A DNA stretch of 64,000 nt, taken from NCBI RefSeq assembly GCF_964204645.1, contig NC_134029.1:13356850-13420849 (forward strand), in the 5' to 3' direction. The DNA is from Tubulanus polymorphus. Taxonomy: Eukaryota > Animalia > Nemertea. Shown here piece by piece: positions 6,196 through 54,785 of this stretch. Every line of letters starts with the position of its first letter. Positions within the stretch are counted from its first letter, which is position 1. Below the pieces are notes generated by a model that had not been told where the DNA came from, did not search any database, and worked only from the letters and a program-made list of their open reading frames with translations. Position numbers and translations under genes: made by a program.

Positions 6196-8735
6196 TTAAC
6201 ACGTTAGAATCCTGTTCATAAACTCATTTTCTTTTGTTTCTTCTCTTTTAAATTTTAAGTATTCATCTAAATTGCAACCATAAGCAACTGTATGAATTCC
6301 ATCATCTAAAATATATCTTTTATCATCAAATGGGTTTAGACTTATGTTCTCTATCTCTTCAATAAACATTTCATGATCTTCTGATCTTAAACATCTCATT
6401 TTATGTTCTTCATTGAATATACAATTGATGTAATCTTTGAAATGAATATTCTTTTCTACTACACTTTTGGTTATTCCTTTTAACTTTTTAGCTACATGTT
6501 CTTTAGTTCTATATGAATACATTTTAGATCTAATTCCTATGAACTCTATCATTTCTTCACCACCTAATTCATCTTTGAATTTACCAGGAACTTTTTTATT
6601 ATCATTGCTAAACAATTCACGATTTTTAGGATAATTACTGAAATCAAAATGATGTTTTAATGTTTTTAAATCATCTGTTATGTTATTAGTTTTTATCTTT
6701 AATATGTAACTGTCAGTATCAAAATATAAGATTTCTATATGTTTTTCTCCAAAATGAGGTTGTAATACATTATAATAGAATTCATACATCAATAGCTTTG
6801 ATATTTCTAAAACTGAAGCACCAACATAAATTGGTTTATCAAATTTCATTGATGTTCTTCTCATTTTAACTGCAGCTCAATTTTCATCAAATATTCTGTT
6901 ACCTAAAAACTTAGGATATGTTTGTAAATGCCTAATTCTTTTACCATTACTGACTAACTCAATATCATTTCTATTTCTAAATTTTCACAAGTCTTACCAT
7001 AGAATGCATTATTCATTAGTTTGAAGAAATCTTTCTCGAAATCAGTTTTAGCTTCAGTTCTCTGTTTGGTGTTAAAATCTATATATTTTTCTAACCATTT
7101 AGATTGACTAAATGAAATATATCTATGTATTTTTTTAGGATCATTCCTTGTTTTAGATAAAACTTTAACATTCTATAATGTACTACATAATTATATTTAT
7201 CTTCTTGAGTTACCATTAACTTTTCTGTATGAATATGATTTTCGGGTTTAATTCTTTTTTGATAACTTGATAATTCTTCATGAGTTACAGTTTTATGTTC
7301 GGGACAGTATGCTAGATTTCTAGATTCAAATTTAATATGTTCAGGATATTCTAAATCTACAACAAAGAAGTAACCAGTATCTGAATCATCTGCAATATCT
7401 AGAATTCTTTTCTTCCAATCAAATTTATCATTATTTTCATGTTGTAAAACTTCACTTATTTCAAATACTCCATAAGGTTGTGGTTCCATCATTGCCCAAC
7501 CATACCAATTATTTGCATCTATATATAGTAACTTATATCCAGGATTATCATTTACATTGAAATATCTATCGCCTAATACACCTGAAACTCCTCCTCTTAT
7601 AGATTTTTCAAATAATAATAATTGATCTATATTTGTTAACAAATCCATTTTTATATCTGTAAATTTTAATCCACAATCCCATGTTAAATCTGGACTAGCA
7701 TAACAATGACAAGGATCAATGTTAAAATATTATAGGTTTACATCTCTAAACCTTTCGAATATATCAGTTAATAATAATACATCTGATTTTAAATATAAAT
7801 CTACTAATTGCCCATGATTTTTCATTCCAAAATTATTCCAAATATTCAATATTCTATTATATACTTCATCTTTAACATATTCATTTTTTAATTCATCATA
7901 GAATAGTTCTTTTAATAATTCAGTTATATTGAAATCATTATGTGATTTATAAAATGAATATTGAATTGCGCCTTTATCTCATTAATTGAAAATCATCATT
8001 ATTTTGGTAATGTTGCTTTAATATTTTTAATTCATCATCAACTAATGATTTGATAAATTATCTAATGAAGCGCTTAAAAATCTATATGAATCTATAAATC
8101 TTAAACAACCAAATTGGAAAGATAAATAATTCTCAGATGTTTTAGCTAACATTTTAGATTTATAAGTTGGCATTTTATCTTTTGGTCTCTTTGAATTTAA
8201 TCTTTCTATTTCATTATTGATTTCTTCTATTTCATGACATAGTTACTTGAAGAATAAATGAGCATCATACCCTGATAGATTATGAAATATTACAGAAACG
8301 AAATTGATTTTCTTAGCATGTAAGTTACAATTCTCATGCGCTGCCCCTCTAAACTTTCCATTCGAATGATCATGGTCTCTAACTTTTTTATCTCTAAAAT
8401 TAAATATCTGTTCTTTTAATAATTCAGTTATATTGAAATCATTATGTGATTTATAAAATGAATATGGAATTGCACCTTTATATCTCATTAATTGAAAATC
8501 ATCATTATTTGGATTATGTTGTTTTAATATTTTTTATTCATCATCAACTAATGATTTTGTTATCTAATGAACTGTTTAGAAATCTATATGAATCTATAAA
8601 TCTTAGGCACCCAAATTGGAATGATATATAATTCTCAGATGTTTTAGCTAACATTTTAAATTTATAAGTTGGTATTTTATCTTTTGATCTATTTGAATTT
8701 AATCTTTCTATTTCATTATTAATTTCTACTATTTT
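6196..8735 (-). pseudogene. Protein-primed family B DNA polymerase (pPolB), intein-free allele, 5'-truncated with internal duplication
   Basis: Motifs HNLSGYD, YIDANNxYG, KLMNNAFYGK, YFDTDS, RSKMY; several frameshifts and stops. Confidence 0.93.
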
Positions 8736-8737
8736 AT

Positions 8738-11300
8738 GGCGCTGAAATCGTGCTAGGAACCGACGATACACGTTTTGAAAATTTTCCTGGCCCGGTGTCT
8801 GCTGCCGGGTCCTAAACCGTGCTTTAGTCTTTACGGAATTTTTTCGGGTTACGCCTACAAGGTCGTTGTCTTCGGCTTCCTTCAACATTTCATTTTCAAC
8901 TGGCATCAGACCACAATTAATAGGTTAGTAGCTTGAAGATGCGTATGGCCGGACCATAGAAGCTAGAGTGAAGAAGAGGTCCCCCATAAATGTTGCTATA
9001 ATTTCGGCAAATGAGATAGAGGTCTGAGCTCAACTTTTGATCGATTGATGGAGGACCTCATTTCCTTGGTGACATGAGTCGGAATCTTCAGTTGAATCAG
9101 GAGGAACAATAATTGTTCAGGACACACTGTATAACATGATACTTACTAGCCAAAAATTAGTTCATCAAAACTGCATCAGTTGCAAAAACTACCATCATGC
9201 TTTCCCAAAATGGAATATAAATAAATAATATTTTATTTTCATTTGTCTGTGCATCATGATATAAATTGTTGTTATTGTTTTATGTACATGTATGTACCCG
9301 TATCAGCTAACAATGAAGTTTTCACTTCATTTGAATAAATTCTTAACTACAGTAATTCTAATTCTCAATTGTTTTTATTATTGTTTGGTTATTCCTTGCA
9401 ACTTCTCATTTCCACGTTTCATACAAGAAGTAGTTGAATGAAAGTACAGTTAGGCTGAACCTGACAACCCATAATAAGTGCTAGCATCGAGATTTGATTA
9501 TTTCGATTTTATTTTCGGTGTCATTGAAATTCGTAAATAAAGGTTCAATTGTCATTGTACTTAGCATAGCTTAGATTGGGTTTCATATTTCTACATTTTC
9601 TACAAGGAGGCCTTAAAGGGTCGTCCCCGGGTAGAGGTCAAAACTTGGTTTACATTCTCAAGTTGCTGGAGACTACCATCTGCATTCATACCTCGATTTG
9701 TCTGGCCTATTTGTTTGAGAGTCGAAGAACATTTTCCCATACACAGGCTTGGCTTTAGTGTAGATGAAGGCTAGGCACTGCACATTGTGGATTAACTGGA
9801 ACTCAAAACTCTCAAAATGAAACGAGTCAACAAGAAAGATCCAATAATTGAACGTTTATCTAACTATATTATTTAACAGCTTAATAGATATACATTATAC
9901 ATTATACACAACAGAAATCAGTTCTACATTTTATCCAAATCAAGCGTTAAAGCCACAGATTCGCTTAGCTTGGGCTTGAATTCTGGTTCCATTGCTTCGT
10001 ATTCTATTGAAATCCCCTTTGTTACCTCGGAATATCGCTTAGCTACAATTTTAGAAATTAGACTACAAATTTGGTCCCAGGAAAACCAAGTAAAGTGGGG
10101 TACTATTGTACATCAGCTGTTGACTTATTTTTCTCTGGTTGAATCAAGTTATTACTGAATGAAATATAATCACTGCTGCTACAAGAAGTCTTTTCTCGGT
10201 ATCTGTATGTCCATCTTAGCAAATCAACTTGGTCCATGATTCCTCCTTTTATAGAGATGAAGGCTAGGCACTGCACATTGTGGATTAACTAGAACTCAAA
10301 ACTCTCAAAATGAAACGAGTCAACAAGAAAGATCCAATAATTGAACGTTTATCTAACTATATTAATTAACAGCTTAAGAGATATACATTATACATTATAC
10401 ACAAAAGAAATCAGTTCTACATTTTATCCGGATCAAGCGTTAAAGCCACAGATTCGCTTAGCTTGGGCTTGAATTATGGTTCCATTGCTTCGTATTCTAT
10501 TGAAATCCCCTTTGTTACCTCGGAATATCGCTTAGCTACAATTTTAGAAATCAGACTACAAATTTGGTCCCAGGAAAACCAAGTAAAGTGGGGTACTATT
10601 GTACATCAGCTGTTGACTTATTTTTCACTGGTTGAATCAAGTTATTACTGAATGAAATATAATCACTGCTGCTACAAGAAGTCTTTTCTCGGTATCTGTA
10701 TGTCCATCTTAGCAAATCAACTTGGTCCATGATTCCTCCTTTTATAGATAGTCTAAAAATAAGAATTGTTACATTTTCCTAACAGATGCTATGTCATTTC
10801 TTTAAAAAACATGATGATTTTCTCACCACAGCAAATAAATTATTCGCAATTGTTAAATCCATTCCATGCGCACAATGAATTAAAAAAAAATTAAGTAAAA
10901 TCCCTTTTGTCCAAAAGCCGCATCATCATTATAACTAGCTATCAAATTTAACTTACCTCAAGTCTCCAACAGAGAATACCACAGTCGCCCATAGTCATGC
11001 GTGACGTGTTGACAAAAGAAAAGTGGTTCTCATAATCATATTTTATATACATAGAAATGTTCAAATAAGATTTTTTCGTCTTGTAGAAGTAAACCATATT
11101 CTTGGAATATTCAGCATAGTGTTTAAAGTTGGCTTGTGCGGTTGTGATAGGGTTTTGATACTCCATACATACTGTTTATGCATGTCTCTTTAACCAAAAA
11201 TTAGATAGAGACTAAAGCAAAGGTTCAGGACTCGGCAGCGGTCCCGGCCCGGAAAAAATTGAAAACGTGTATTGACGGTTCGTAGCACGATTTGAGCGTT
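8738..11300. repeat. Pair of ~93-bp diverged inverted repeats (8738-8830 and 11208-11300), likely DNA-transposon ends
   Basis: aaatcgtgctaggaaccgacgatacacgttt...gctttagtct is the reverse complement, with mismatches, of agactaaagc...aaacgtgtattgacggttcgtagcacgattt; TTTCAGCG subrepeats follow at 11320-11403. Confidence 0.7.
9762..10747 (+). repeat. 493-bp tandem duplication
   Basis: 9762-10254 repeats at 10255-10747 with few substitutions; ORFs at 9970 and 10463 are offset by 493. Confidence 0.93.
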
Positions 11301-25358: not shown

Positions 25359-27690
25359 CAGTCAAATCTCGTTATACCGCCTTCCGTAATACCGCCAGCC
25401 CTGGCTCTCGCCGTATTTTCGCCAATGCACAGATCAGATGTATTTAATCTAATGTATTTTTGTCCCGTCATACCGCCCTCCGCTAACCGCCAACCGCTAA
25501 CACTAATCTGCGTACAAATATATTGTTAAGCATTACTTTTTGTCGCGTTATACCGCCAGCGAAAAAATTTAGCGATCAATTCTATATGTAGGCTTATAAT
25601 ACACTGCAGATATAGCGCAACGATCTATTGTCTCCATAACGACCAATACTGCGCGGTAACTTTAGATTGTGTATCTAATTGCTTGTCTCAGCATGGCTGA
25701 AAAACGACCCCGGCTGTCTTTATCTGTGAAAGAAAAGCGTGAAATCTGTGAATTTTCAAAGAAATGGCCGACAAAATCGCAGCAAGCTGTTGCAGATCAC
25801 TTTGCTACATTATGGAAAAAGCCGATCAAACGACGAACTATTGGCGATATTCTAGCACAGGCTGAAAATGGTTAAATTCTGAATTAAACACTGAGGCAGC
25901 ACTGTCTTCTAAGAGATTACGGTCAGCTAAACATGAAAATATGGAGAAAGCCCTTTATTTGTGGTTTAGCTCTACAAGAGCCAAGAACATTCCTGTCACC
26001 CAAGACATTATCAGAGCACAGGCGATTTATTTTGGTGGGGGGTTAGAAATTGGCGAGTTTAGTTACTCCAGTGGATGGCTGAACAGATTTCAGCATCGTT
26101 ACGGAATATCCAGTCACAAAATCAATGGAGAAAGTGCTGGAGTTGATCAGGAAGTTGTGAAATCCGGAATAGAAAAGGCCGAAGAGGTTATCAAGAACTT
26201 TACTCCGAGGGACGTGTTCAATATGGACGAGACTGGTTTATATTATGCCCTCTTGCCTGATCGATCCTTAACTACCTCAGAATTTGTAAAGGGCACAAAA
26301 AAAGTTAAAAACAGAATCTCACTTGCTGTTTGTGCTAATTCAGACGGCACTGAGAAATGCCGCCTCCTTGTGATTGGTAAAAGTAAACGTCCACGCTGTT
26401 TCAAGGGTTTCAACTCCCAGCTATATTGTGATTATGAAGCGAACAAGAAGGCTTGGATGACGAGCATAATTTTCTTCGAGTGGTTGGAAAATTTCAACCA
26501 GAAAATGCATTCTCAAAATCGCCCCGTGCTACTAATCTTAGATAACGCACCGTCACATATTGTACCGGAGAACGAGAACGGCGAGTTGTCACTTGGAAAT
26601 GTAACAGTGCACTTTCTCCCGGCAAACACAACTAGCCACATTCAACCTATGGATGCGGGTGTCATTCAGAACATGAAGACGCACTACCGGAGGCTGCAAA
26701 TACAACCTCTTGTTGATGCCATTGACAATAATCGACCTCCAAAACTTGAGCTCAGTGACGCAATTAGATATGCTAAGTCGGCATGGGATAGAGTTTCAAG
26801 AGAAACGATTGCTAACTGTTTCAAGCATAGCCAAATTCTTCCAGAAATCTGGCCATCTGTCGCGAGGCCACAGACGAGCGCTCCTCGGAGAAATTTGTTT
26901 GAAAGTTTAATGACAGAAGCCGCTGAAACATCGGAAGAATCTTCGTCAACCAATACAACTTCTACGCGACCTAGAATTGGTGACAATCTGTTTGAACGTT
27001 TAGCGGCTGCACTCAGCATTGCTCCCGAAATGCTTATGACGGAGGAAGAATACGTCAACGTCGATAAAGAACTACCGTCTACCGCGATATTAGAGGATGA
27101 TGAGATTTTAGATTTAGTGAGAAGTGACATGAATGATGACAATGGCGATGAAGAAGAAGAGGATATCCCTGAACCGGAGAAACCACCGACATCGTCAGAA
27201 GCTCGTTATGCAATCCGTTCGTTACTTCGTTACGTGGAATCGAACAAGTACGCAACCGAAGAAGACATCCGTGCTATCAATCAAATTGGATCTCGTCTGG
27301 ACACTCTGACAGGCTTATCTATGAAGCAGTCGCAGATAACTGACTTTTTCACAGCGAGTAAATAAACAATACAAGGACCTTACGCAAACATTGCACTCGG
27401 TAATTAAAAATCGGTGATGGATTTTAATAAACAAACACGTGCACGCTGCATTCTTTCAGTGCCGTTTGCCTCCAGCGGATTAATTAGTAATATTGCCTAC
27501 TGTTCGTAATATTTTGTGATTGAAGAGTCAATAAAAACAAGTCATTTGTTGGTCTTTATTGTTATTCTTTATTTATTTTGACATATTGCTCAAAATTTGA
27601 TGGAAAAATGGGAAGTTTTAGTGAACTCTCGCTATACCACCTAACCCGTCATAACGCCAAAATTTCCGTGAGTAATTGGAAGATGTGGGT
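25359..27690 (+). mobile_element. pogo/Tigger DNA transposon, right TIR missing
   Basis: TA then CAGTCAAATCTCGTTATACCGCC; repeated TACCGCC subterminal motifs at both ends; the complementary TIR is not seen before Polinton B starts. Confidence 0.88.
25693..27365 (+). pseudogene. pogo/Tigger (CENP-B-like) DDD transposase with one frameshift near 25870
   Basis: N-terminal HTH (LSVKEKREIC), second HTH (EKALYLWF...GWLNRF), FNMDETG, LILDNAPSH, QPMD (36 residues between the last two Asp). Confidence 0.92.
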
Positions 27691-27752: not shown

Positions 27753-30700
27753 ATGGGAGAGAGTGAGTACCAGACAGAAAACAATAATGTTAATAAAAAT
27801 CAATATTATTGCCCATATTGTAAAAAATACATCGATAAATCTAATAAATCTAAACATGAAAAATCTTCAAATCATATAAAAAATGTAATAGATTTTGAAA
27901 CTCCAGAAAATTCCAATGAAAGAAAAGAAAGATTAGAAAATATGAATGTGGATGAAATGAAATGTGAAGTTTGTAATGAATTTATAGTAAAAAGGAATTA
28001 TAATAGACATCTCGAATCACAAAAACACCACCAAAATTTGAGTAATAATGTTTTAGGAAAAAATTATTTTGACGATAAACCTCAAAAAGTAAAAAAACCA
28101 ACTTCAAAAACTAAATCCATTTCAAATAAACCTTACATGGAAAATGTTAGAAATTATATTGATTCACTAGAAATAAAAGATACAATTGAAATTTTAGAAA
28201 CATTACATAGTAAAATTGGTCCTGCAGCTATTATATTTAGATTTTTTAAAGGTACAACAATAGAAGATTATAGTACATTTAATGAAATAATAGAAAAAAT
28301 ACTAGATTTGATAACAGATGTTGAATATCCAACAATTAGTATCTCTGGGATAGTAAGTTTTATTAAGTCAGAAGAAAAAATGAATTATAATATTCAAACA
28401 CACTCTGAAGAAATAATTTCAAAAACACAAATAAAAGAGAAGTTAGAAAAAATATTTAATGAATTTAAACGTCATATTGAAGAAAGATATTTTGAGGGTT
28501 CTGGCTTAACATTGAACGAAATTATATATTTAGATTTAAATGTTTATAATACAAAAAAGAATAAAACATCAAAAAGTAATAAAATGTTTAAAAATGATTC
28601 AAACTTTACAACAGAAAAGGATATTAAAGCATCATCTTATATTAAATTACCATTTACAACAAAAGCAGTAATAAATGTTCAAAATGAAGATAATAAATGT
28701 TTTCTATGGTCAATTATTAGTTGCTTACATCCAACACAGGAAAATGTTTGTAGAATAACAGATTATCGGAAATATGAAACATTATATAAAATTGATCAAT
28801 ATCCAGTAACTATAAAAATGATACCCAAAATAGAAAAAATTAATAATTTAAAAATAAATGTATTCGAATTAATGCAATAACCAAAGACAAAAGGTGAAAA
28901 TATTAAAGATTATACATTGGAAGCTTTATATTTAACAGAATATTATGATGATGAAAATGCTATAGATTTGTTATATTATAAAAAAGATGAAAATGAACAT
29001 TATATGTGGTTAAAACAAATTGATTTATTCTTTAGAACAGAAAGTGATCATCATCGTAAAATTTATCTATGTAGAAAATGTTTATCTAAATTTATGACTG
29101 AGAATACATTATTAAAACATAAAGAATTATGTGATAATAAAGATTTTTGTGAATTAATAATGCCAACAGAAAAAGATTATAAATTGAAATTTACTAATCA
29201 TAATTTTAAGAATATTGTTCCATTTGTAATTTATGGGGATTTTGAATCGTTGAATAAAGAATTAACTGATCAAGATAGAAAAGAAATATATAACAAAAAG
29301 CAATTATTAAAATCGATGGATAAAGGAAATGAATTAAATGAAGACGCAACACAAGACCCACCAATTATAAATACAATTAAAAAAGTTCATCAAAGAGCTG
29401 CTGCTTATGGAATTTACATCAAATCAAATTATCCCGAATTATATGAAAGTCAATATATTTCTTTTAGAGGTGAAAATGTAGTTAATGATTTTTGTGACAA
29501 AATGATTGAATTAGAAAGTGATTTTGCAAAATTATTAAACAAAAATAAAAGAATAGTTATGACAAAAGAAGATGAAATTGATTTTAATTATGCAACTCAT
29601 TGTTGTTATTGTGAAAAACGTTTTTATTCATTTGATAAAAAAGTTAGAGATCATGATCATTTAAATTCAAAATATCGTGGAGCTGCTCATGAAGATTGCA
29701 ATTTACAAGCTAAGAAAGTTAATTTCGTACCAATATTATTTCGTAATTTATCAGGCTATGATACCCATCTATTTATAAAACAATTATCGGGAAAATTGGG
29801 CGCAATTAATCAAGAAATAGAAGAATATAATGCTATGAATGGTGTAAATGTAAGAAAATATGATTTTAAACTATTAGCTAAAACATCTGAAAATTATATT
29901 TCATTTCAATTTGGTTGCATTAGATTTTTAGATTCTTATAGATTTCTAGCAAGTTCATTAGATAATTTATCAAAAAGTTTAGTTGATAATGATTTTGTTA
30001 TAACTCGATATTATTTTCCAAATGAACAAGATTTTAAATTATTGAGATATAAAGGCGCAATTCCTTATTCATTTTATAAAACACACAATGATTTTAATGT
30101 AACAGAATTATTAAAAGATCAATTTTATGATCAATTAAAAGAGGAGAATGTGTAAGACGAAGTGTTTAATAGAACATTAAATATTTGGAACCATTTTAAG
30201 ATGAAAAATCATGGCGAATTAGTTGATTTATATTTAAAATCAGATGTTATGATATTGGCTGACATATTTGAAAAATTTAGAGAAGTTAATTTGAATCATT
30301 TTAATGTTGATCCTTGTTATTGCTACTCTAGTCCTGGTTTAACCTGGCAATGTGGTTTAAAATATACAAATGTAGAATTAGATTTATTAAAAGAACCAGA
30401 CATGGTTTTATTATTTGAAAAATCAATTAGAGGTGGAATTAGTGGTGTTATGGGAGATAGATATTTTAAAGCAAATGATGAATATAAATTATTATATATT
30501 GACGCCAATAATTTATATGGTTGGGCAATGATGCAACCTCAACCATATAAAAATTTTATATTAACAGAATTTGAAAGTGATGATAAAACTAATTGGGAAA
30601 GCGCAATTTTGAGTTTAGAAGATGAAGCACCAATTGGTTATTTCTTTGTAGTTGATTTAGAATATCCTGAAAATATAAAGTTTAAAACAAGAAACTTACC

Positions 30701-32812
30701 TTATTGCCCAGAACATTTAACTGGAGATGATAGTTATTTAAGTGAATACCAGAAGAAAATAAAACCGAAAGATCATGTTTTTACAGAAAAATTACTTACT
30801 CAAAATAATAAATACAATATATTGTCCATTATAGAATGTTAGAATTTTATCTAAAACAAGGAATGAAATTAAAGAAAGTACATAGATATATTGAATTTAA
30901 TCAATCGAAGTGGTTAGAAAAATATATAGATTTCAATACTCAACAGAGAACAATATCAAAAACAGATTTTGAAAAAGATTTCTTCAAATTAATGAATAAT
31001 AGTTTTTATGGTAAAACATGTGAAAATATTAGAAATAGAAATGATATTGAATTAGTAAATAATTCTGAAAGATTAAGACAGTTACAATCAAGTCCTAGAC
31101 ATTAAGGAAATTAAAGATTTGAAGATTATTTAACAGCAGTTAAATTAAAAAGAACATCAATGAAATTTAATAAACCTATATTTATTGGTTCGACTGTTTT
31201 AGAAGTATCAAAATTATTAATGTATGATTTTTATTATAATGTTTTACAACCACTTTTTGGGGAAAAGCATATTGAAATATTATATTTTGATTCTGTAACA
31301 GCTGACACCCCAATATTATTAAAATGTAATGATAAAATATTGATAAGAAGAATTTCAGAAATAATTCCAAAACAAAATGAATGTTATATTTCATATCGAG
31401 AAAAAGAATTAATACAAATAAATGGTTTAATGGATGTTTGGACAAGAAATGGATGGAAAAAATTAAAGAATATTATTAGGCATAAAACAAATAAGAAAAT
31501 CTATAGAGTTAGAACTAAATTAGGATTTGTAGATGTTACAGAAGATCATAGTTTAATTAAACGAAATGGTGATGAAATAAAACCAACTGATATAAAAATT
31601 GGAGATGAATTATTACATAAAAGATTTTTCCAAAGAATGAATCATATGTCATTTGATGAAATAATTGATAATATTTATAATATAGAACCCGAAACATTAG
31701 AAGAAAAAGAATATTTTATCAAAGGATTTTTCATGGGTGATGGTTCAGCAGGTGTGTATAATTATGTAAATCGCACTCAATATTGCTGGTATTTATGCAA
31801 TCAAGACTTAAAATTATTAGAAAGAATAAAGAAATTTCTGTGAAGAAGTTTATCCAAATAAAACATTTAAAATCATGGATGTTATGAAATCAACAGCAGT
31901 TTATAGAATACTTGTAAATAATCCTAAAGATTTTGCTATAAAATATAATGATGAATTCTATATTCATGCAATAGTTAAAAGTAATACTTCAACAAAAGAA
32001 AAGATAGTTCCAGATTATGTATTAAATGCAAAAAATAATTTAAGAAAATGGTTCTTCATTGGATTCTATGCTGCAGATGGTTCAAAAAGTTTCAAAAACC
32101 GCAAAACAATATCTTTAGCTCAAAAAGGAAAAGTTGCTATATCAGGATTGAATATATTATGCAGTTCATTAGGATTTAATATGAATATTGGATTGATTAA
32201 ATCTAAACCAAATTGCTTTAATTTAAGCCATGTAGAAAATGAGTTAACAGAAGAAGTTAAGGATTTATTTGAAATATATAACCCAACTGACTATGTTTAT
32301 GATTTATCAACAGATAATGGAACATTCAATTCTGGGTTCCCATTAATCCAAAAAAATACCGACGCCTACATACTAAAAATCAAGACAAATGACATAACAA
32401 AAGACTAAAAACATTAAAACATCATTTTGATTTTAGCAATTATCCCAAAGATCATGAACTATTTAGCAATGGTAATAAAAAGATTCCTGGTAAATTTAAA
32501 GATGAATTAGGGGGTGATGAAATGATTGAATTTGTTGGGATAAGAAGTAAAATGTATAGTTACAGAACAAAAGATCATGAAGCTAAAAAGTTAAAAGGAA
32601 TAACAAAACATGTGGTTGATAAACATATAGAATTTCAAGATTATATAAAGTGTTTATATAAATCAATTGTAATGAAACACAAAATGAATTGTTTAAGATC
32701 AGAAGATCATGAGAGGTACATTAATGAAGTTGAAAAAACTAGTTTAAATCCATTTGATGATAAAAGGCATATTTTAGATGATGGTATAAAAACATTACCT
32801 TATGGTCATTAA
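27753..32812 (+). pseudogene. pPolB polyprotein (Zn fingers, OTU-like protease, exonuclease with EndoVII-like insert, polymerase) containing an intein
   Basis: DNKCFLWS...HY, YGDFES, RDHDH...RGAAH..CN, NLSGYD, YLKSDV, YIDANNLYG, KLMNNSFYGK, YFD/TD, RSKMY; stops at 28878, 30153, 31103 and frameshifts near 30817, 31838, 32405. Confidence 0.95.
31292..32357 (+). mobile_element. Intein with LAGLIDADG homing endonuclease (~355 aa after correcting a +1 frameshift)
   Basis: Inserted between YFD and TD; block A SVTADTPILL, block B VDVTEDHSL, KGFFMGDGS and IGFYAADGS, block F YVYDLSTDNGTF, end LIQKN/T; absent from copies A and C. Confidence 0.95.
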
Positions 32813-34139
32813 AAAAAAAAAAAAAAATCATAAAATCAATATCATCATACTCGAAATCACTATTGGCTTCTTCATTTTCATTTAATTGTTTAGGTTCTTC
32901 TTCCATTTCATTTTTCTCATTTAAATAAAGTTCTATCTTGTTCCACATTTCATCTCGCTCTCTTTGTTTCTTTTTGTTTGTTAATTCATCAAATGGAATT
33001 ATAATATCTATGTTTAAATAATTTACAATCTTATTTAAAAAGAATTCATAATTTATTGAATCTGTTATTCTATTTTCCAAATAATACATTAATATTTGTT
33101 TGAATATTTTTTTTATATTTTTCATATCTTCTTCTGTTAATTTAGGTTTTTCATAATAATCGTTAAATAATAAATATAAATACATTTTCTTTTGTTTTGT
33201 GTTAAATGTTGACGGAATAATTGTTTTTATAATATCTTTTTTAGTTATTTCACCATTTTTATTTTCTATTATTTTCATTTTTTCAAGCCATTGCATATAT
33301 TCTGGTGTATGATCTTCTATAGAAAATATTTTAAAAATTTCATCTAGATAATTTAATTTTGGATCTATGAGAACATTTCTAGTTTTTTCTTCACCCAATA
33401 AATTCTTTTGCCATCCACATTCATTACAAAATAACACAGTACCTTCTTGTCTTAAGGTCGCATAACTACATTGTGGACATTTTCGTTTATAATTTATTGG
33501 TAATAGATCTTCATTAAGCTCCTGGTATTTTCTTACGTTTTCTTTATGTTTTATTGTTCTATTATGTAGATTTGAATTACTTGTTGTAATAATCAATTTA
33601 CAATATTTACAATAATATGTTTTTCTTGTTAATTCATTATATTGTTTTTCTAACATTTCATCTGTTTCATTATTATCTGGTAACGTTTTCTCATATTTTA
33701 TTTTTTCTAATAATTTTTTTTTTCTTTCATTGAATTCAGTTTCAAATTTATTAGAAATTTTATCTATATGTGCTTTACGAAATTGATGATTCTCCCAATC
33801 TTCTGTATTTTCAGGGCTATATTTCATTCGACAAGGCTCACAGAAATGATCTTTTATATTATCCATATCATAGAATAAGAAAGGTCTTTTCCAAATAACT
33901 TCAGGTTCAACTTCGGCAGAATTACTATTACTTTTATTACTATCAACATTAGCCGTTGCGCCATTAATTCTACACTTCTCTGAATGTTTTTTAACATATT
34001 TTCTTGAGAATGATTTATTACATTTTGGGCAGTTTAGTTTAGGGGGTTTATAATTTTCATCATGTTTTTTCATATGTCGAGCCATATTACTTTTTCTTAG
34101 AAGTTCGCCACAAATTTCACATGCTATCTTCTCATCCAT
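32739..34139 (-). CDS. Multi-zinc-finger protein with C-terminal VLTF3-like (poxvirus A2-like late transcription factor) domain
   Basis: Four C2H2/C2HC fingers, CPQC...CNECG ribbon, then SINYEFFLNKIVNYL and KKQRERDEMWNKI; open frame; the last ~30 codons probably result from a poly-T length change at 32811-32827. Confidence 0.72.
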   Translation of the reverse strand: MDEKIACEICGELLRKSNMARHMKKHDENYKPPKLNCPKCNKSFSRKYVKKHSEKCRINGATANVDSNKSNSNSAEVEPEVIWKRPFLFYDMDNIKDHFCEPCRMKYSPENTEDWENHQFRKAHIDKISNKFETEFNERKKKLLEKIKYEKTLPDNNETDEMLEKQYNELTRKTYYCKYCKLIITTSNSNLHNRTIKHKENVRKYQELNEDLLPINYKRKCPQCSYATLRQEGTVLFCNECGWQKNLLGEEKTRNVLIDPKLNYLDEIFKIFSIEDHTPEYMQWLEKMKIIENKNGEITKKDIIKTIIPSTFNTKQKKMYLYLLFNDYYEKPKLTEEDMKNIKKIFKQILMYYLENRITDSINYEFFLNKIVNYLNIDIIIPFDELTNKKKQRERDEMWNKIELYLNEKNEMEEEPKQLNENEEANSDFEYDDIDFMIFFFFFNDHKVMFLYHHLKYAFYHQMDLN

Positions 34140-34207
34140 TTATTTAGGAAAGATTTTATTAAAATTAATTTTTAGTGATATGCGGTAATTTTTTTATGTT
34201 ATAAATA

Positions 34208-34593
34208 ATGGTAGAATAAAAAGAATACAGAATATTTGTTGATTCTAGAAAACTTACAAATTATAAATCACATAATTTACTAGTTCAATTAGATAGAGAA
34301 TTTAAGAATTGTGTAGATTTAAAATTAGTTAATATAAGTTTATTGACCCAACAAAAACATTTGAAGCAACTAAAGATACAATTTGTAATTCTGGTTTATT
34401 AAATATTTTACCATTAAAAAATGTCAAACAATTTGGAACGCAAATAAGTTATAATTTAGCTGAATGTGATTTCAAACCTTGTATTCCACATTTCAATAAT
34501 TTTAAATTAGAAATAAGAAATCATAATGGTTATTTAATTGATTTGAATAACTTTCCTGTAATTCATGAATTAGTTATAAGATGTAAAGAGTAA
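34208..34593 (+). pseudogene. Penton with early stop and ~376-bp internal deletion
   Basis: 5' and 3' ends match 49184-49945, joined near 34342. Confidence 0.85.
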
Positions 34594-34609
34594 TTTTTTC
34601 ACTATATAA

Positions 34610-34967
34610 ATGAATATAACTGTTGGACCGAGTATATGTTTTGGGTTTGATTTTAAACGTGAGAAAGAAATGAAATTTAACGTTAATGATGTAATTACAC
34701 GTATTAAAAATATTGCATTTTCTAATGAAACAACATTTGAGTATAAAACAACAATAGATAAAGAAACTTTAAATGTAGAAAAGATTACTAATTTAATTAG
34801 AGAATCTTTAAGATTTTATGAATTAGATGAAGATTTTATCATCGATGATATTGAAAAAAATAATAATTGAAATATATACAAATGAAACTAGTAATGAAAT
34901 AAATGTTGAATTAATCATAAATAAGTTAACTAAATATTTTGATGATAGTAATTTTTTTGATAAATAA
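34610..34967 (+). pseudogene. 118-aa family protein, frameshifted in an A-run
   Basis: Matches 4681-5037. Confidence 0.82.
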
Positions 34968-35189
34968 ATGAGTGATAATAAGTGGATAATAACTGGATTA
35001 TATAATGGCGCATTACTATCAGTTGGAACTGTTGGTTATTCAATGGTATTAAAAAAAGTATTCAAAATGGGAAGTGTTAATGTTGATAGATTTGATATAA
35101 ATGATATTTTAAAATTAACATTAGCAGTTACTTTATCTAATTTAACAATTGATTATTTAGAAAAACAAAAATATATTCCTTCCATATAA
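34968..35189 (+). CDS. 73-aa small hydrophobic Polinton protein
   Basis: Three near-identical copies in the window. Confidence 0.85.
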   Translation: MSDNKWIITGLYNGALLSVGTVGYSMVLKKVFKMGSVNVDRFDINDILKLTLAVTLSNLTIDYLEKQKYIPSI

Positions 35190-35213
35190 ATGCGTAATTT
35201 TTTTGCTAAATAA

Positions 35214-35636
35214 ATGGCTTCTGCATTTATAACTATTATAGGATCGGCAATTGTTAACGCTTTAGCATTTACTGGTGGTGGATATTTATTTAAACATATT
35301 GATAAAAATAGTTCATTAGGAGAACAAAGAAGACATAACTTAGCGTTAGAGAAATACAATAAAGCTGCAGAAGAATATAGAGAAAAGAGACAAAACTATA
35401 TGGATTACGTCAATAAAGAATTATATGATCGGAAGATTTCACACAGAGATTTTCAATCAGTTGATGATGCAATGAGTTTATATAACGCGGTAACCAATAA
35501 AGAAAAATTACATCTATACAAACCTAAATTATCAGATTATTATACCCCAAGTAAAGAACAACAGAAATATGAAATAATATGGATTTTAGGGGGAACTGTT
35601 ATTGTTATATTTGTTGCTTATAAGTTTACTAATTAG
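35214..35636 (+). CDS. 140-aa protein with hydrophobic N- and C-termini and central charged helix
   Basis: Intact; matches 48154-48576. Confidence 0.85.
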   Translation: MASAFITIIGSAIVNALAFTGGGYLFKHIDKNSSLGEQRRHNLALEKYNKAAEEYREKRQNYMDYVNKELYDRKISHRDFQSVDDAMSLYNAVTNKEKLHLYKPKLSDYYTPSKEQQKYEIIWILGGTVIVIFVAYKFTN

Positions 35637-35655
35637 TAATTTTTTTGCTAAATAA

Positions 35656-36078
35656 ATGGAAGATAAAGTTGATAATATTGATATTATTCCTCATGATATA
35701 AATAAAACTAAATTAAAAATATATTTAGAAAAACAAATATTAGAATTTGAAAGTGACTTAAAAGTTAAAAAGAAAAAATATCTAAAAAGTAAAATTATAT
35801 ATTATTTGATTATAAGTGGTTCGGTTACAATTAGTTCTGTAATAACATTTCTAGCAATATTCTCACCATTAACACCTTTAGCTATATCAATTGGCGTGTT
35901 AGGATTAAGTTCAAGTGTTTTAACCGGTATAAGTTCAAAATTAAATATAAAAAGTAATAAAGAAAAAATTAAAACTAATATAAAAGAAATTAATAAATTG
36001 AAGAATACACTAGATTATATAATAAGTTTAAATGGTCATATAACAGTTGAAGAACAAGATAAATTATTAAAAGAATAA
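35656..36078 (+). CDS. Predicted membrane protein (144-aa family, last 4 codons lost to a stop)
   Basis: Matches 47701-48135 and 1961-2386. Confidence 0.83.
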   Translation: MEDKVDNIDIIPHDINKTKLKIYLEKQILEFESDLKVKKKKYLKSKIIYYLIISGSVTISSVITFLAIFSPLTPLAISIGVLGLSSSVLTGISSKLNIKSNKEKIKTNIKEINKLKNTLDYIISLNGHITVEEQDKLLKE

Positions 36079-36106
36079 ATAAATTATTAATTTTTTAATT
36101 ATATAA

Positions 36107-37508: not shown

Positions 37509-37524
37509 TTTTTTTATTATATAA

Positions 37525-38956: not shown

Positions 38957-38996
38957 CCATGATAAAAAATAAATAATTAATTTTTTTGTTAAATAA

Positions 38997-40245
38997 ATGA
39001 GTGGGAGTTATATAAGTCCTTCTAAGATTTCTAGAATATCTAATGCTATTAAAGCAGAAAGATCACATCATATAATTACTCATAACCCTTCAAATATTAA
39101 TCCCGATGAAACTTTATATGTTAGAATTCCTAGATTAACACAAAATACTTTTTATGTTCCAAATAGTATTTATTTATCAGCCGATATAAAAGTAACTGGC
39201 CATGATGACAATTATGTTGTTGATAATGTTGGAAGATATTTGATTAAAAAATTAACTATAAAGATTGGTCCGGAAACATTTTTCTCATTAGATGATCATA
39301 ATTTATTTATGCATTATAAAGATTTATGGTTAACTAAAGAAAATAGAAATAATATGATATTTCAGGGTATTCAATCGGAAAACCATAATAAATAAAGATC
39401 AGGAGCTAATGACGCAATAGTAACTCGTGCCACAGATAATTTGATTAAAAAGATTTATGGAAGCAAATATAAAATTCCATTAGACTTTGAATTGATAAGT
39501 AATAATGCACCTTTATATAAATACGCAATTCAAGAAGATATTATATTTGAGATAACATTTGCTCCTGTAAATGAAATTGTATTATCTAGCGTTGTTAAAG
39601 ATATGGGTTATAAATTATCGAATATATGTTTAGAATATAACACAGTAACTAATGAAAATATTGCTAGCACAATTCAAACTCAATACAATCAAGGATTTTC
39701 ATTATTATATGATTATATTGATAAATTTAAAACTGTAACTATTAATGCAAATGATGAAATAATTAATGAGAATATTAACTTCCCAAGAAGATCTATTAAA
39801 GGTATATTAATATTTTTTACAATTGCAACATATTCTAATGGCGCAATAAAGGTAGATAATTATTATAATCCAGAAATAACAAAAGTAGAAATAACTATTG
39901 AAGGAATAGCAAATAAAATATTTTGTCAAGGAATGAGAATGATTGATCAATGGCCAGAAATTAGAAAACATTTTATGAATGAAAAAGTAAAATCATTTGA
40001 AAATTGTAATATTAATCAAATTTATAATTATGCCGGCAATAAATATGCATTATGGTTAGATTTTAGAACAACAGAGGATAATTCATTACATGGTTCTGGG
40101 AAAAAAACTACAGAACACTAAAGATGGAATACAATTATTCATGAAAAAGAAAAGAGGAGACAAAAATTTTAAAATGCACATTTATATTATATCTGACGCG
40201 CAATTAAAGATTGTAAATTCACAATTAGATAGTATTCAATATTAG
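38997..40245 (+). pseudogene. Major capsid protein (probable double jelly-roll), one stop and one frameshift
   Basis: ~415 codons, beta-strand-type composition, duplicated at 43275-44516, adjacent to integrase/ATPase; fold inferred from size and context. Confidence 0.72.
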
Positions 40246-40275
40246 AAATATAAAGTTAAAATTAAGGATATATAA

Positions 40276-41402
40276 ATGGGTGGTAAAAAAACTCCTAATA
40301 CTAAAGAACAATATTTAAGAAATTTATATTACAACACTGAGAGTTCGGTTGCTTATTCTTCTACCGAAAATATATGGCGTCAAGTAAAACAAGATAAATT
40401 AGATAAGATAATCCCACAAAATTTAGTTAAATATAAAGATATAAATGAATTTATGTTAGAACAACCAACATATACAACACATAAAAAAATTGTTAGAAAA
40501 TATAAAACTCGTAAAACTATGGTAAGTTATCTAGATCAACAGTGGCAAGGAGATTTAATTGATATGAAAAATGTTAAGAAAGATAATGATGATTATTGGT
40601 GGATATTGAATATAATTGATATTTTAGTCGTTATGTATGGAGTTTCCCACTTTATAGAAAAGATGCTGTACAAACATCAAATGTTTTAAGAAAATTTCTT
40701 TCGGATGATAAACTAAAACCAGAAAAAATACAATTTGATGATGGAAAAGAGTTTGATAATTCACTTGTTCATGAACTCTTAGACAATCATAATATTAAAT
40801 ATTTTTCAACAAAATCGGATAAAAAAGCGGCAGTTGTTGAACGATTTAATAGAACATTAAGAACAAGAATGTGGAAATATTTTACAGCAAATGATACTTT
40901 TAAATGGATTGATGTTTTACCAAAATTGGTAGAAGGATATAATAATTCTTATCATTCTTCTATTGGAATGAAACCTATTGATGCTAGAAAACCTGAAAAT
41001 GCTGAAATTGTTTGGAATAATTTATATGGAGCATTTCTTGTAGATGATTTTGGTGAACCTAAATTTAAAGTTGGTCAAAATGTTAGAATTTCTAAGTATA
41101 AAAAGATATTTGACAAAGGATACGATCGAAATTTTACTAGGGAAATATATAAAATAAAAAAGGTAATAACAACAAACCCATATGTCTATAAATTAGAAGA
41201 TTTAGATGGTGAAGAAGTTGATGGCTAATTTTACGAAGAAGAATTAAGTTTAACTACTGAAAATCTAGAACAAGAATGTAAAATTGAAAAAGTATTAAAA
41301 ACAAAAACTATTAAAAGAAAAAAATATTCTTTAGTAAAATGGGTTGGATGGCCAGATAAATTCAATGAATGGATATTATCAAGTAAAATTAAAAATATAT
41401 AA
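40276..41402 (+). pseudogene. Retroviral-like (rve) integrase with C-terminal chromodomain
   Basis: WQGDLIDM, IDIFSRY (frameshifted), QFDDGKEF, VERFNRT, YNNSYHSSIGMKP, FKVGQNVRI, tail IEKVLK...LVKWVGWPDKFNEWI. Confidence 0.93.
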
Positions 41403-42014
41403 ATGAATAAAGAATTATTTATATTTGAGTCTCATAATATGTTAATATCTGGTGTAACAAATTGTGGAAAAACTTATTTTATATTAAATTTATTAGAAAC
41501 TGTTTATGAAAACTATTTTGATAATATAGTATTATTTTGCCCAACATATGAATTTAATCAAACTTATGATAGAAATATTACTAGAAATAATAAATTTATT
41601 ATATTAGATCCTAAAACAGTAAAGGAAAATTTAGATAATTGTATTAAAATAGCAATTGATATTTATAAAGGATCAAATAAATTATTCATTATAGATGATT
41701 GTGCTAATCTACATGATTCAAAAGTTAGAGAAAGTGAGTTATGTTATTTAGCTTTCTCTGGGAGACATTTCGGGATAACAACATGGGTTTTAAATCAAAA
41801 ATATAATTCAATTGTTAAAGACTTTAGGGAGAATATAAGATTTCTAGTTTTATTCTACAATAAAGATAGAAAATCCATGCAACAATCATTGGAAGAAAAT
41901 CAAATTATACCTACTGAATTATATGATGAATATATGAATAAATTAAAGAATAATAAAGGTTCAAAATTATTACTGAGACTACAATTTCCATATGAATATA
42001 AATTTATAAAATAA
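41403..42014 (+). CDS. A32/FtsK-like genome packaging ATPase
   Basis: Walker A GVTNCGKT, Walker B LFIIDD, GRH motif, LNQ motif; intact 203 aa. Confidence 0.92.
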   Translation: MNKELFIFESHNMLISGVTNCGKTYFILNLLETVYENYFDNIVLFCPTYEFNQTYDRNITRNNKFIILDPKTVKENLDNCIKIAIDIYKGSNKLFIIDDCANLHDSKVRESELCYLAFSGRHFGITTWVLNQKYNSIVKDFRENIRFLVLFYNKDRKSMQQSLEENQIIPTELYDEYMNKLKNNKGSKLLLRLQFPYEYKFIK

Positions 42015-42029
42015 CTATTTATATACCTA

Positions 42030-42410: not shown

Positions 42411-42435
42411 ATTTGAATTAAATATAATTAATATC

Positions 42436-43242: not shown

Positions 43243-43274
43243 TTATTATATAAATATCTATTAAAGTTAAAATT

Positions 43275-44516: not shown

Positions 44517-44558
44517 TTATTTAACAAAAAAAAATTAATTATTTATTTTCTATCATGG

Positions 44559-46279: not shown

Positions 46280-46295
46280 TTATATAATAAAAAAA

Positions 46296-50315: not shown

Positions 50316-53300
50316 TTTAATAACATATTTTTATTAAAATTTGATTAACACGTTAGAATTCTTTTCATTATCTCGTTCTCTTTTGTTTCTTCTCTTTTAA
50401 ATTTTAAGTATTCATCTAAATTGCAACCATAAGCAACTGTATGAATTCCATCATGCAGAATATATCTTTTATCATCAAATGGGTTTAGACTAACCTTTTC
50501 CATTTCTTCAATAAACATTTCATGATCTTCAGATCTTAAACATCTCATCTTATGTTTTCTAACTTCTTCATTGAATATACAATTGATGTAATCTTTGAAA
50601 TGAATATTCTTTTCTACTACACTTTTGGTTATTCCTTTTAACTTTTTAGCTTCATGTTCTTTAGTTTTATATGAATACATTTTAGATCTAATACCAATGA
50701 ATTCAATCATTTCTTCACCGCCTAATTCATCTTTGAATTTACCGGGAACTTTTTTATTATCATTGCTAAACAATTCATGATCTTTGGGATAATTACTAAA
50801 ATCAAAATGATGTTTTAATGTTTTTAAATCATCAGTTATGTTATTAGTTTTTATCTTTAATATGTAAGAATCTGTATCAAAATATAATATTTCTATATGT
50901 TTTTCTCCAAAAAGTGGTTGTAATATATTATAATAGAATTCATACATTAGTAATTTTGATAATTCTAAAACTGAAGCTCCAACATAGATTGGTTTATTGA
51001 ATTTCATTGATGTTCTTCTCATTTTAACTGCAGCTAAATTTTCATCAAATATTCTGTTACCAATGAACTTAGGATATGATTGTAAATGTCTAATTCTTTT
51101 ACCATTACTAACTAACTCAATATCATTTCTATTTCTAATATTTTCACAAGTCTTACCATAGAATGCATTATTCATTAACTTGAAGAAATCTTTTTCGAAA
51201 TCAGTTTTAGCTTCAGTTCTCTGTTTGGTGTTAAAATCTATATATTTTTCTAACCATTTAGATTGACTAAATGAAATATATCTATGTACTTTTTTTAGAA
51301 CCATTCCTTGATTCAAATAAAACTTCAACATTCTATAATGTACTACATAATTATATTTATCTTCTTGAGTTACCATTAACTTTTCTGTATGAATATGATT
51401 TTCGGGTTTAATTCTTTTTTGATAATTTGATAATTCTTCATGAGTTACAGTTTTATGTTCGGGGCAGTAATCTAGATTTCTAGATTTAAATTTAATATGT
51501 TCAGGATATTCTAAATCTACAACAAAGAAGTAACCAGTCTCTGAATCATCTGCAATATCTAGGATTCTTTTCTTCCAATCAAATTTATCATTATTTTAAT
51601 TCTGTAAAACTTCAGTTAATTCAAATACTCCATAAGGTTGTGGTTCCATCATTGCCCAACCATACAAATTATTTGCATCTATATATAATAACTTTTATCC
51701 AGGGTTATCATTTACATTGAAATATCTACCCGCTAATACACCTGAAACTCCTCCTCTTATAGATTTTTCAAATAATAATAATTGATCTATATTTGTTAAC
51801 AAATCCATTTTTATATTTGTAAATTTTAATCCACAATCCCATGTTAAACCTGGTGATGAATAACAATGACAAGGATCAATATTAAAATATTTTAGGTTTA
51901 CATCTCTAAACCTTTCGAATATATCGGTTAATAATAATACATCTGATTTTAAATATAAATCTACTAATTGCCCATGATTTTCTATTTTGAAATGATTCCA
52001 AATATTCAATGTTCTATTATAGACTTCATCTTTAACATATTCATTTTTTAATTCATCATAGAATTGTTCTTTTAATCAGTTATGTTAAAATCATTATGAT
52101 TTTTATAGAAAGAATATGGAATTGCTCCTTTATATCTCATTAATTGGAAATCATCATTATTTGGGTAGTGTTGTTTTAATATCTTTAATTCATCATCAAC
52201 TAATGATTTTGATAAGTTATCTAATGAAGTATTTAAAAATCTATATGAATCTATAAATCTTAGGCAACCAAATTGGAATGATATATAATTCTCAGATGTT
52301 TTAGCTAACATTCTAAATTTATAAGTTGGTATTTTATCTTTTGATCTATTTGAATTTAATCTTTCTATTTCATTATTGATTTCTTCTATTTTATGACATA
52401 ACTGTTTGATGAATAAATGTGCATCATATCCTGATAGATTGTGAAATATAACTGGTACAAAGTTAATTTTCTTAGCTTGTAAGTTACAATTCTCATGTGC
52501 AGCGCCTCTAAACTTTCCATTCAAATGATCATCGTCTCTTACTTTTTTATCTTTATAATTAAATATCTTTTCACAATAATAACATTTATCTGCAAACGCA
52601 AATTCTTCTTTATCTTCTTCTGTCATTATAATTTCTATATTTGTATTCAATAATTTACTTAATCTTATTTCATATTCAATTAATAAGTCACAAAAATGAT
52701 TGATAACATTTTCATTTCTATAATCATAATATTCACTTTCAATTAGTTCTGGATAATCAGATTTTATATATAACCCGAAAGCAGCAGCTGATTGATGAAT
52801 CTTTTTAATAGTATTTGTTTTTGGTGGTTCTTCAGAATAATCATTTTCATTAGAATTTAATTTCTTTCTCATATAATATATTTCTTTTCTATCTTGATCA
52901 GTTAATTCTTTATTTAATGATTCAAAATCTCCATATATTACAAATGGTACTTTATTTTTGTAATCATATTTTTTTAATTCTAATATTTTATCTTTTTCAT
53001 TTGGTAAAACTAATTTACAATAATCATGATTTTCACATAATTGTTTATGATTTAGTAATGTAATTTCATTACTGAATCTATGTAAACATTTTCTAAATAG
53101 ATATATTTTATTATGGTGATCACTTTCTGTTCTAAAGAATAAATCTATTTGTTTAATCCACATATAATGATTCTCATAATATAATATATCTATAACATCA
53201 TTTGAATCATAATCTTTTGATAGGTATAAAGGTTCTAATGTATAATGTTTTATATTGTTACCTTTTGTATTTGGTAATTTGATTAAATCAAATACATTTA

Positions 53301-54785
53301 TTCTGTAATTATTATCTCTTTCTATTTTTGGGATGTTTTTAATTCTCACAGGATACTTATCTATCTTATAATTATTTTCAAATGGTTTATAATGAGTTAA
53401 TCTAAAACTATGTGTAATATCTTCTGTTGGATGTAAACAACTTATTATAGCACATAGAAAACATTTATCATCTTCATTTTGTACATTTATTACAGCATTA
53501 GTTGTAAATGGTAGTTTTATATAACTCGATGCTTCAATATCTAGTTCTTTATAATATGATACATTATTTTCATCTATTGGTTTTGATTTAGTTAACTTAT
53601 TATATGTTGTGTTATAAACATGTAAAGTCATAAATATTATTTCATCAAATATTAAACCAGATCCTTCAAAATATTTTTCTTCTATTTTAGTTTTTACTTC
53701 ATTATAACATTTATCTAATTTATCATCTATATGTTGTTTAGATATAATATGTTGTGAATGAGAATTTATATTATATATTGGTTTATCTTCAGATTTTATA
53801 AACTTAACTTTTGATGAAATACTAATTTTAGGGTATTCAACATCAGTTATTAGGGTTTTCTGTTGCTTCACAGAAAACCCTATTGAAATTCGCGTGATTA
53901 TTATTATTTTTTTTTCCCTTTTCCACATAGTTTTTGTGAAAAGTGTAAAGGCTTCCTTACCTTACCGCTGTCGCCGATACAATCCGTATGATATCCTTCA
54001 GCTAACTTCAATCTCCAGATACTGCATGGGAATTTTGATAAATCCACGTTATAAAGGCACTGTCGAGCCGTAAACATCGGAAATTTGGCCCCGTTCAATT
54101 AGTAGCCATGTTGTGTTTTCTTTCCGAAATTTCTCTCTTCTTTATGAGGAAGAGCTATCGAATTATTCCCTCTCTTCTCCACAATCAATTTCAAAGTCAA
54201 TTTTATGAATTTATTGCTCAGCGGGTCCGAGTCCAAGAGTTTACGAGTCCGGCGTTCGCGTGTCTGACAGGTTTACGGGCATTTGTTTGTTACCACTTTA
54301 ATATTTTTGATTTCTTGTTATTCCGGTTATTTCATTTAAGTATATTGCTGATCAGTTCATGTAACCAAAAGCGTCAATAAACAGATTTTGAATTGATCAA
54401 GTTTAAATCAAGGTCGTTGAGTCGCGGAGGGCTGCTAGAATTACGTTCGTCTCAGAGAGAGAGAAAACAAACGACAGAAAAGTATCAGGTGATTATCGAT
54501 AGCCTACTACGGTACACACAGTTGACAAACAGTTAGGCCTGTGCCAGTTGGTGCGTACTGGGAATAAATATACTGGTTGGTCAGTTGGTTCGGTTGTGAA
54601 GTGTGGAAGCTAAGAGAAAGCCTACCGCAGTACGGGTATTTATTTGTCTATAGGCCTATTATATAGAAGCCAATACCAGTTAGTACGTAGTTGTTACTCG
54701 TACGTGACTGTATGGTGATCTCCACAGGTTAACCGTACGTGAGTTCCCTACTAACGCCGTACGTGAGTTCCTCTAGTAGCCAATA

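Follow-up and report, generated by a model that had tools for sequence, protein, structure and literature searches.

An intein with a LAGLIDADG endonuclease in motif C of a decayed Polinton polymerase, and a clade of related inteins likely derived from giant viruses

The window (the whole stretch of 64,000 nucleotides that was analysed) contains a Polinton whose protein-primed DNA polymerase (pPolB) is interrupted by a true intein, of the Ser/Asn/Thr type and bearing a homing endonuclease, at the pol-c site. Probably this is the decayed copy of an element predicted to splice itself out and to home, one of a single clade of inteins in pPolBs for which giant-virus PolB is the likely source. The original prediction had pictured a single event, in which an intein crossed from a giant-virus PolB into a pPolB and was carried into an animal chromosome; this picture missed a widespread and probably still mobile clade of pPolB inteins. 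The intein and its parts are located as follows:

31292..32357, forward strand: intein, class-1-type with LAGLIDADG homing endonuclease, 355 residues (motifs, profiles and PDB match)
31292..31294, forward strand: block A nucleophile Ser1, immediately 3' of YFD in polymerase motif C
31538..31549, forward strand: block B TxxH (TEDH)
31724..31744, forward strand: LAGLIDADG motif 1 (GFFMGDG), acidic residue retained
32061..32081, forward strand: LAGLIDADG motif 2 (GFYAADG), acidic residue retained
32292..32309, forward strand: block F (YVYDLS), Asp present
32352..32360, forward strand: block G Lys-Asn and the C-extein +1 Thr, with the terminal Asn at 32355-32357 and GFPLI preceding

The insert measures 1066 bp, equivalent to 355 codons plus one base, with a single frame break near 31835-31843, and it splits YFD|TD at exactly the coordinates first proposed. 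On the left the polymerase frame reads KHIEILYFD and is followed by SVTADTP from 31292; on the right GFPLIQKN runs up to 32357 and is followed by TDAY. When the insert is taken out exactly the empty motif remains, and the other two Polinton copies of the window (A and C) present YFDTDS without break, as had been read before. The splicing blocks of the original prediction (Ser1, TEDH, YVYDLS, terminal Asn and +1 Thr) are all present, together with its two LAGLIDADG motifs.

The intein protein (P0001) was read through the frame break with an X at that place, and this corrected translation, whose comparison with Hint and LAGLIDADG profiles had been proposed, matched TIGR01445 (intein N-terminal, 32.7 bits, cutoff 24.5) and PF14528 (LAGLIDADG_3, 31.2 bits, cutoff 22.5); PF14890 (Intein_splicing) stayed under its cutoff, with 29.0 against 35.8 and an E value of 1.1e-6. 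The PDB match was PI-PkoII (E 1.2e-6), and identity to the unbroken intein of another pPolB, P0248, is 62% in 356 columns. Motif, profile and identity evidence for the window intein is beyond chance by far. A structural model was obtained with AlphaFold for P0002, a natural relative that is 47% identical to the window intein and stands in for it, folded with an alignment of 35 rows (pLDDT 90). The best structural matches of this model were the endonuclease-bearing inteins TliVMA, PI-PkoII, PI-PfuI and PI-SceI (best E 2.7e-18), and the I-DmoI fold was matched as well. In its present decayed state the window copy cannot work.

The penultimate residue is Lys and the usual His, which is not obligatory for class 1, is absent. 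This had been pointed out as an oddity, and it turned out to be ordinary: among 166 distinct non-pPolB inteins related to this one (near-copies included) Lys was identified in 85 and His in 62, and among the unbroken pPolB inteins His, Lys and Ser all occur.

The site itself is the pol-c site (site III) of giant-virus and archaeal PolB inteins defined in PMC549080. In the available text of that source the Mimivirus PolB intein and the pol-c family share with the window intein the location in motif C (YFD|TDA in the window intein, YGD|TDS in theirs), Ser as first and Asn as last residue, the +1 Thr, TxxH, LAGLIDADG and a length of about 350 residues, the likeness to Mimivirus being one by description. 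The differences are in the host: a Polinton protein-primed pPolB (PF03175) instead of an RNA-primed delta-like PolB (PF00136), in an element that, unlike the viruses of the pol-c family, integrates into host chromosomes. The pPolB inteins also form a clade of their own.

The window contains three Polinton copies, of which only copy B carries the intein. The genes identified in them are the following:

27753..32812, forward strand: pPolB of Polinton copy B, host gene of the intein (PF03175, E 7.5e-9, above cutoff; decayed)
38997..40121, forward strand: probable double-jelly-roll major capsid gene, broken (feature look-alikes, a lead only)
40276..41228, forward strand: retrovirus-type (RVE) integrase, broken (PF00665, E 1.9e-4, under the curated cutoff)
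41403..42014, forward strand: A32-type packaging ATPase (PF04665, E 3.5e-12)
50345..53961, reverse strand: copy C pPolB, of the other type (YFDTDS, uninterrupted; junction 50877/50876)
6196..8738, reverse strand: copy A pPolB, of the type seen in C (YFDTDS, uninterrupted; junction 6719/6718)

The pPolB of copy B is 33-69% identical to P0248 and is disrupted at seven places in total, these being stops near 28878, 30153, 31103 and 31112, frame breaks near 30820 and 32400, and the frame break of the intein. The capsid candidate found Atlas look-alikes at 0.95-0.98, with Capsid_NCLDV, Capsid_N or DJR-like labels on 10-18% of their members and a recognition value of 1802, below 2300; it had no sequence match in Pfam, PHROG or PDB. 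PHROGs gave no match for 9 proteins, a cysteine protease and a minor capsid protein had no Pfam match among the 40 window pieces scanned, and in IMG/VR none of the 10 stretches that came up for the capsid piece, and none of the 57 for P0248, was a relative. Copies B and C are arranged tail to tail. Of 73 inverted pairs the 25 longest included no terminal inverted repeats with a 6-bp target duplication, and the copies look truncated.

The polymerase DNA of copy B is only 74-79% identical to that of A and C, whereas the genes of the capsid side are mostly 89-94% identical among the copies (89-93% between B and C, 81% for one A/B stretch), and the polymerases of A and C are 88-99% identical to each other in steps of 100 bases. 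Copies A and C are therefore a different polymerase type and not empty alleles of B; judged from these sequences, the genome holds two polymerase types on one capsid module, with the intein in type B only. At the intein site B and C are identical over the 15 bases on the left, while the 9 bases on the right contain 4 differences. Co-conversion between B and A/C was considered for this region and set aside: identity is 88-93% near the site and 90% at another conserved motif too, which makes it indistinguishable from conservation.

The divergent pPolB with a weak PF03175 match, the RVE integrase, the A32 ATPase and the capsid-like gene resemble those of Beta adintoviruses or group 1 Polintons (available text of PMC8502044; pPolB1 of PMC10748475), and a further likeness is the exchange of polymerase modules over a common capsid module. 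Copy B would presumably belong with the Beta group.

Nuclease domains within pPolB are already known from the HNH and VSR inserts of Polintons (PMC10748475 and PMC11071308, available text), and an endonuclease-VII/HNH-like insert is weakly seen in the window polymerase (PF02945, E 0.009, in copy B) and in its relatives too. For the HNH/VSR inserts no splicing domain is shown in the text available of those sources, whereas the window intein has a full Hint domain with its splice residues, a LAGLIDADG endonuclease and a location between the catalytic aspartates. One sentence of PMC11071308, in the text available, suggested in 2024 that nuclease inserts in pPolB stem from intein invasions, and the present inteins are the first concrete support found for it. 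The words 'intein' and 'LAGLIDADG' do not occur in the main text of PMC10748475, nor does 'intein' in the main texts of PMC8502044 and PMC11131425, the latter on coral polintoviruses; the available text of PMC12220804, PMC13768754 and PMC3671162 mentions inteins in general terms only.

The window intein is one of a family. A first protein search gave 43 matches, the best 21 being of the pPolB-intein type, 15 of these with Polinton polymerase flanks when inspected by eye. A search for longer proteins identified five unbroken proteins containing pPolB and intein, of 1504-1693 residues, among the 120 listed of 301 matches, and a sixth (P0211) came from a cluster list. P0269, labelled PF03175 and yet with giant-virus flanks, was dropped from the pPolB set. 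In a pattern scan of metagenomes a pPolB locus was present in 1 of 56 stretches, where a 1203-residue pPolB runs into an intein of the same clade followed by in-frame stops; the remainder were mostly giant-virus PolB, with 6 matching other genes by chance. The core residues Ser1, TEDH, the block F Asp (YVYD) and the last Asn are kept in all 8 full pPolB inteins compared, and so are both acidic residues of the endonuclease, at identities of 41-78%.

A tree with the motif-C inteins of PolB, as earlier proposed, was built from 52 rows chosen among 121, and nine pPolB inteins form one clade in it (support 100/100, starred). One member, P0266, matches PF03175 strongly as a pPolB, and its polymerase gave a best BLAST E of 0.7 against that of copy C, i.e. 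no significant match; a VSR-like motif presumably marks it as one of the second deep group of pPolBs. The P0266 intein shares 47% identity with that of the window and is placed inside the pPolB clade (100, starred; subclade 95, starred; tree of 32 rows). With the intein in the clade and the polymerase unalignable by BLAST, vertical descent alone is insufficient.

Outside Polintons, the closest inteins belong to large PolBs on giant-virus contigs from IMG/VR, at YGD|TDS, with 32-41% identity over the full length. One viral group has the unusual end GxPLI-x-K-N, as the pPolB inteins do (GFPLI before block G in the window intein); this end was identified in 48 of the 166 non-pPolB inteins, which form one viral clade, and all 48 have the penultimate Lys, although His was also permitted in the search pattern. 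The careful 52-row tree makes the GxPLI inteins sister to the pPolB clade (87/92) and nests both among other viral inteins (86/87), the nesting branches being unstarred. The tree of 32 rows agrees with the sister placement, at 91, and FastTree (121 rows) and a quick tree of 52 rows did not recover it. Related inteins are also present in topoisomerase II at D|TD sites, so the intein family jumped between unrelated genes before.

From these sequence comparisons a giant-virus donor is the most likely reading, and a probable one. The part of the original prediction that named giant-virus PolB inteins as the closest relatives outside Polintons stood; the direction of transfer that it proposed is not established, since a viral clade without the pPolB inteins is not rejected by the AU test (p=0.425). 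It is this result, along with the long stem of the pPolB clade (0.66) and a distant outgroup, that speaks for another origin, in which the inteins are real and mobile and either are an old sister lineage to every pol-c intein of the Nucleocytoviricota, with a common source in phages or archaea, or moved out of Polintons into the viruses. Such an origin is unlikely in view of the nesting of the pPolB clade among viral inteins in the best tree, the GxPLI end common to it and one viral clade, and the much larger number and diversity of the viral pol-c inteins.

With a giant-virus donor, the simplest course would be one ancestral jump from the pol-c site of a Nucleocytoviricota PolB to the equivalent D|TD of a pPolB, most easily in a cell holding both, a step for which support is moderate. 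The clade would then mark encounters of Polintons with giant viruses, a side of the Polinton lifestyle that is still an open question.

Inteins in viral polymerases within nuclear DNA have been described in the available text of PMC10710043, which reports inteins in endogenised giant-virus polymerases on nuclear scaffolds of algae and protists, virus-derived inteins in Anaeramoeba and non-allelic jumps attributed to viral endonucleases. The window case is alike in being an intein in a viral DNA polymerase, within DNA that is likely nuclear; the cases in that text are Nucleocytoviricota-type polymerases or host genes of non-animal eukaryotes, whereas here the host is a Polinton pPolB. The words 'polinton', 'animal' and 'metazoa' do not occur in its main text. 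According to the available text of the reviews PMC5784728 and PMC8529194, inteins are absent from metazoan genomes, and the viral inteins that they list belong to large DNA viruses. A true intein in a Polinton polymerase was not found described in the full-text literature searched. The pol-c intein lineage in Polinton polymerases is likely new, and a clade of full inteins there would be a new class of host protein and a route into animal chromosomes. The gene concerned is a viral one and not a host gene, and inteins of endogenised viral polymerases are already known in algae.

The chromosomal setting of copy B was examined in its flanks, which are rich in transposable elements on both sides. 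The element next to it is:

25866..27365, forward strand: Tigger/pogo transposase, flanking host DNA beside copy B

Among the 120 relatives listed for this transposase 17 are named by organism, and 16 of these 17 are animals, with at most 45% identity; the three closest matches (52-54%) are outside the named set. As the organism-named relatives are mostly animals, an animal host is likely, on indirect evidence. A 2A-like GDIETNPGP motif at 11398-11655 is presumably typical of animal LINEs and points the same way. The contrary account, that the host is not an animal or that the contig joins a free virus or contaminant to host DNA, leaving no intein in an animal chromosome, draws on flanks where only transposon remains and no host genes were found and on the lack, among those listed, of any read or contig spanning the junction of element and host. 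It is quite unlikely: copy B is decayed like an integrated fossil between flanks of transposable elements, the named Tigger relatives and the 2A-like motif indicate an animal, and the intein and its flanks are both covered in runs of organism A from different samples and studies.

The window stretch was contained in 5 of the 11 read runs listed, 4 of them with the label organism A. The marine metagenome X5 contained a small share of it, 0.08, and was unused. In run X3 the depth on Polintons was very high; a reading of this as amplification of virus was weighed and discarded as uninterpretable, runs X1 and X4 of one sample differing about 100-fold on the same bins. Raw reads of run X6, from a different sample and study and from another individual, had depths of 209 and 187 on two intein bins and 214-225 on the downstream gene specific to B. 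Depth reached 256-400 over the polymerase upstream of the intein and 433-599 over the catalytic half of polymerase C, and the three host bins of lowest depth gave 20-26. The intein copies are about 8-10 if those lowest bins are single copy, and more if they are repeats. A search of reads for intact copies had been proposed; in X6, 95 of 135 reads at the frame break lack it, so the majority of copies have decayed less than the one in the window.

An intact copy is predicted to splice by class-1 chemistry, where Ser1 would undergo an N-O shift aided by the block B His, with transfer to the +1 Thr, Asn cyclisation and ligation. In the Polinton polymerase precursor this would rejoin the aspartates of motif C and restore the active-site motif. 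Splicing would have to work, since the insert parts the two catalytic aspartates; for the same reason the existence of intact copies speaks for continued production of active polymerase by these Polintons. The LAGLIDADG endonuclease is predicted to cut empty polymerase genes, whose repair would copy the intein in with co-conversion of the flanks, either between Polinton copies co-resident in one nucleus or between co-infecting Polintons. The intein may have entered the chromosome as Polinton cargo and come near fixation in the B type, leaving the A/C type, in whose DNA those 4 of 9 bases right of the site differ from B, untaken.

Traces of homing are present in the family of P0249, a cluster of 136 members on contigs of up to 1.0 Mb. 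Members examined were 14 of 15 listed (40 read), a piece of 129 residues being left out, and comprise 7 full, 6 empty across the site and 1 ending before it. The full proteins have 1537-1539 residues and the empty ones 1186-1193, the intein having 346, and the exteins are 94-99.7% identical. All 10 fixed differences between full and empty copies fall in residues 1035-1085, a stretch enclosing the site at 1041, and the other columns of the 1191 have none; the tract boundaries were set after inspection of the data and the copies are non-independent. In this tract the full copies resemble other families with the intein more closely than the empty copies do (22 against 18 and 24 against 20 of 30). 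Such a tract looks like the expected mark of homing with co-conversion from a more distant donor. The full copies are 98.6-99.7% alike, and a single event followed by copy expansion could give a similar tract; polymorphisms at residues 863 and 1174, common to full and empty copies, hint at more than one event. On this sequence pattern the pPolB intein clade is probably still mobile.

That the intein splices and no longer homes, after one old entry into pPolB with vertical descent and with full and empty copies due to one old recombination and loss, is very unlikely given the P0266 intein in a polymerase unaligned by BLAST to that of the window, the endonuclease motifs intact in 8 of 8, the sharp P0249 tract and the two shared polymorphisms, even though intein and extein identities track each other in group 1 (63% and 58-71% for the window against P0248; 74-78% and 73-85% among P0236, P0237 and P0211), GC is equal in intein (25%) and extein (24-26%), and no joint skipping the intein, as an empty B allele would give, was present among 15 listed of 224 in X6. 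Empty alleles of the B type are probably rare.

A wider version of the homing reading is tentative and falls somewhat short of even confidence: Polintons may be a live reservoir of working inteins in animal chromosomes, derived from giant viruses, splicing and homing between integrated germ-line copies, jumping between two deep pPolB groups and driving escape variants of the active site. If true, they would also preserve, as fossils, evidence that Polintons and giant viruses have occupied the same cells. The empty P0249 alleles differ at the site itself, with YFDTDA, YTDCDS and YGDTDA, as escape variants would look.

The capsid-side module is common to Polinton copies B and C at 89-93% identity, whereas their polymerases share 74-79% and the genes beyond the polymerase are not the same. 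This points to a polymerase-module swap inside one genome. Read depth over the shared module reaches about 950, close to the depths of the B and C polymerases added together. The two copies, arranged tail to tail, and the associated Polinton features are:

27753-42200 (+), Polinton copy B
42400-53961 (-), Polinton copy C
32739-34139 (-), unbroken ORF of 466 residues with several zinc-finger matches
42020-42380, short tandem arrays at the B/C junction, with units of 15, 8 and 11 bases
57700-58300 (-), remnant that matches copy B 27990-28301 at 69% and represents the start of a fourth Polinton polymerase
58508-58702, 195-bp palindrome adjoining the fourth polymerase remnant

The zinc-finger ORF is found only in the B type and is convergent with the B polymerase. 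The tandem arrays, which repeat on both sides at about 69%, may be remains of element ends. Position 53849 is joined to 57723 in 407 reads of X6 (raw reads of another individual), so other copies are uninterrupted there. Contig depth in sequencing run X3 places Polinton genes hundreds of times above low-copy host bins, an excess far higher than in runs X1 and X6.

Empty alleles of a single Polinton family (P0344, P0346-P0348, P0350 and P0351) are 94-99% identical outside the catalytic motif, which itself reads YFDTDA, YTDCDS or YGDTDA. Escape from the endonuclease is a possible origin of this variation.

Inteins of the same family as the copy B intein are carried by the type II topoisomerases P0069, P0160, P0175, P0176, P0242, P0320 and P0331, probably giant-virus genes, at a DxD|TD motif and an EGD| site. 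Eight giant-virus PolBs of 1700-2400 residues (P0049-P0051, P0054, P0061, P0077, P0087 and P0238) were also identified, and in most of them the intein profile matched 2-4 times, which suggests several related inteins within one polymerase. The giant-virus group with the C-terminal signature GxPLI comprises short forms of 228-277 residues (metagenome loci L039, L049, L051, L058 and L082) alongside full inteins of 360 residues, and these lengths indicate endonuclease decay within the group.

Host-side and repeat features are:

25866-27365 (+), unbroken Tigger/pogo transposase of 499 residues
11398-11655 (-), piece containing LLSGDIETNPGP
19743-20637, 97-99% identical inverted repeat, about 300 bp long, with a 331-nt spacer

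The transposase, which is low copy (depth 31-34), immediately adjoins the left end of copy B. LLSGDIETNPGP is presumably a 2A-like peptide motif, and the piece containing it gave no Pfam match. The inverted repeat lies inside an acidic ORF fragment.
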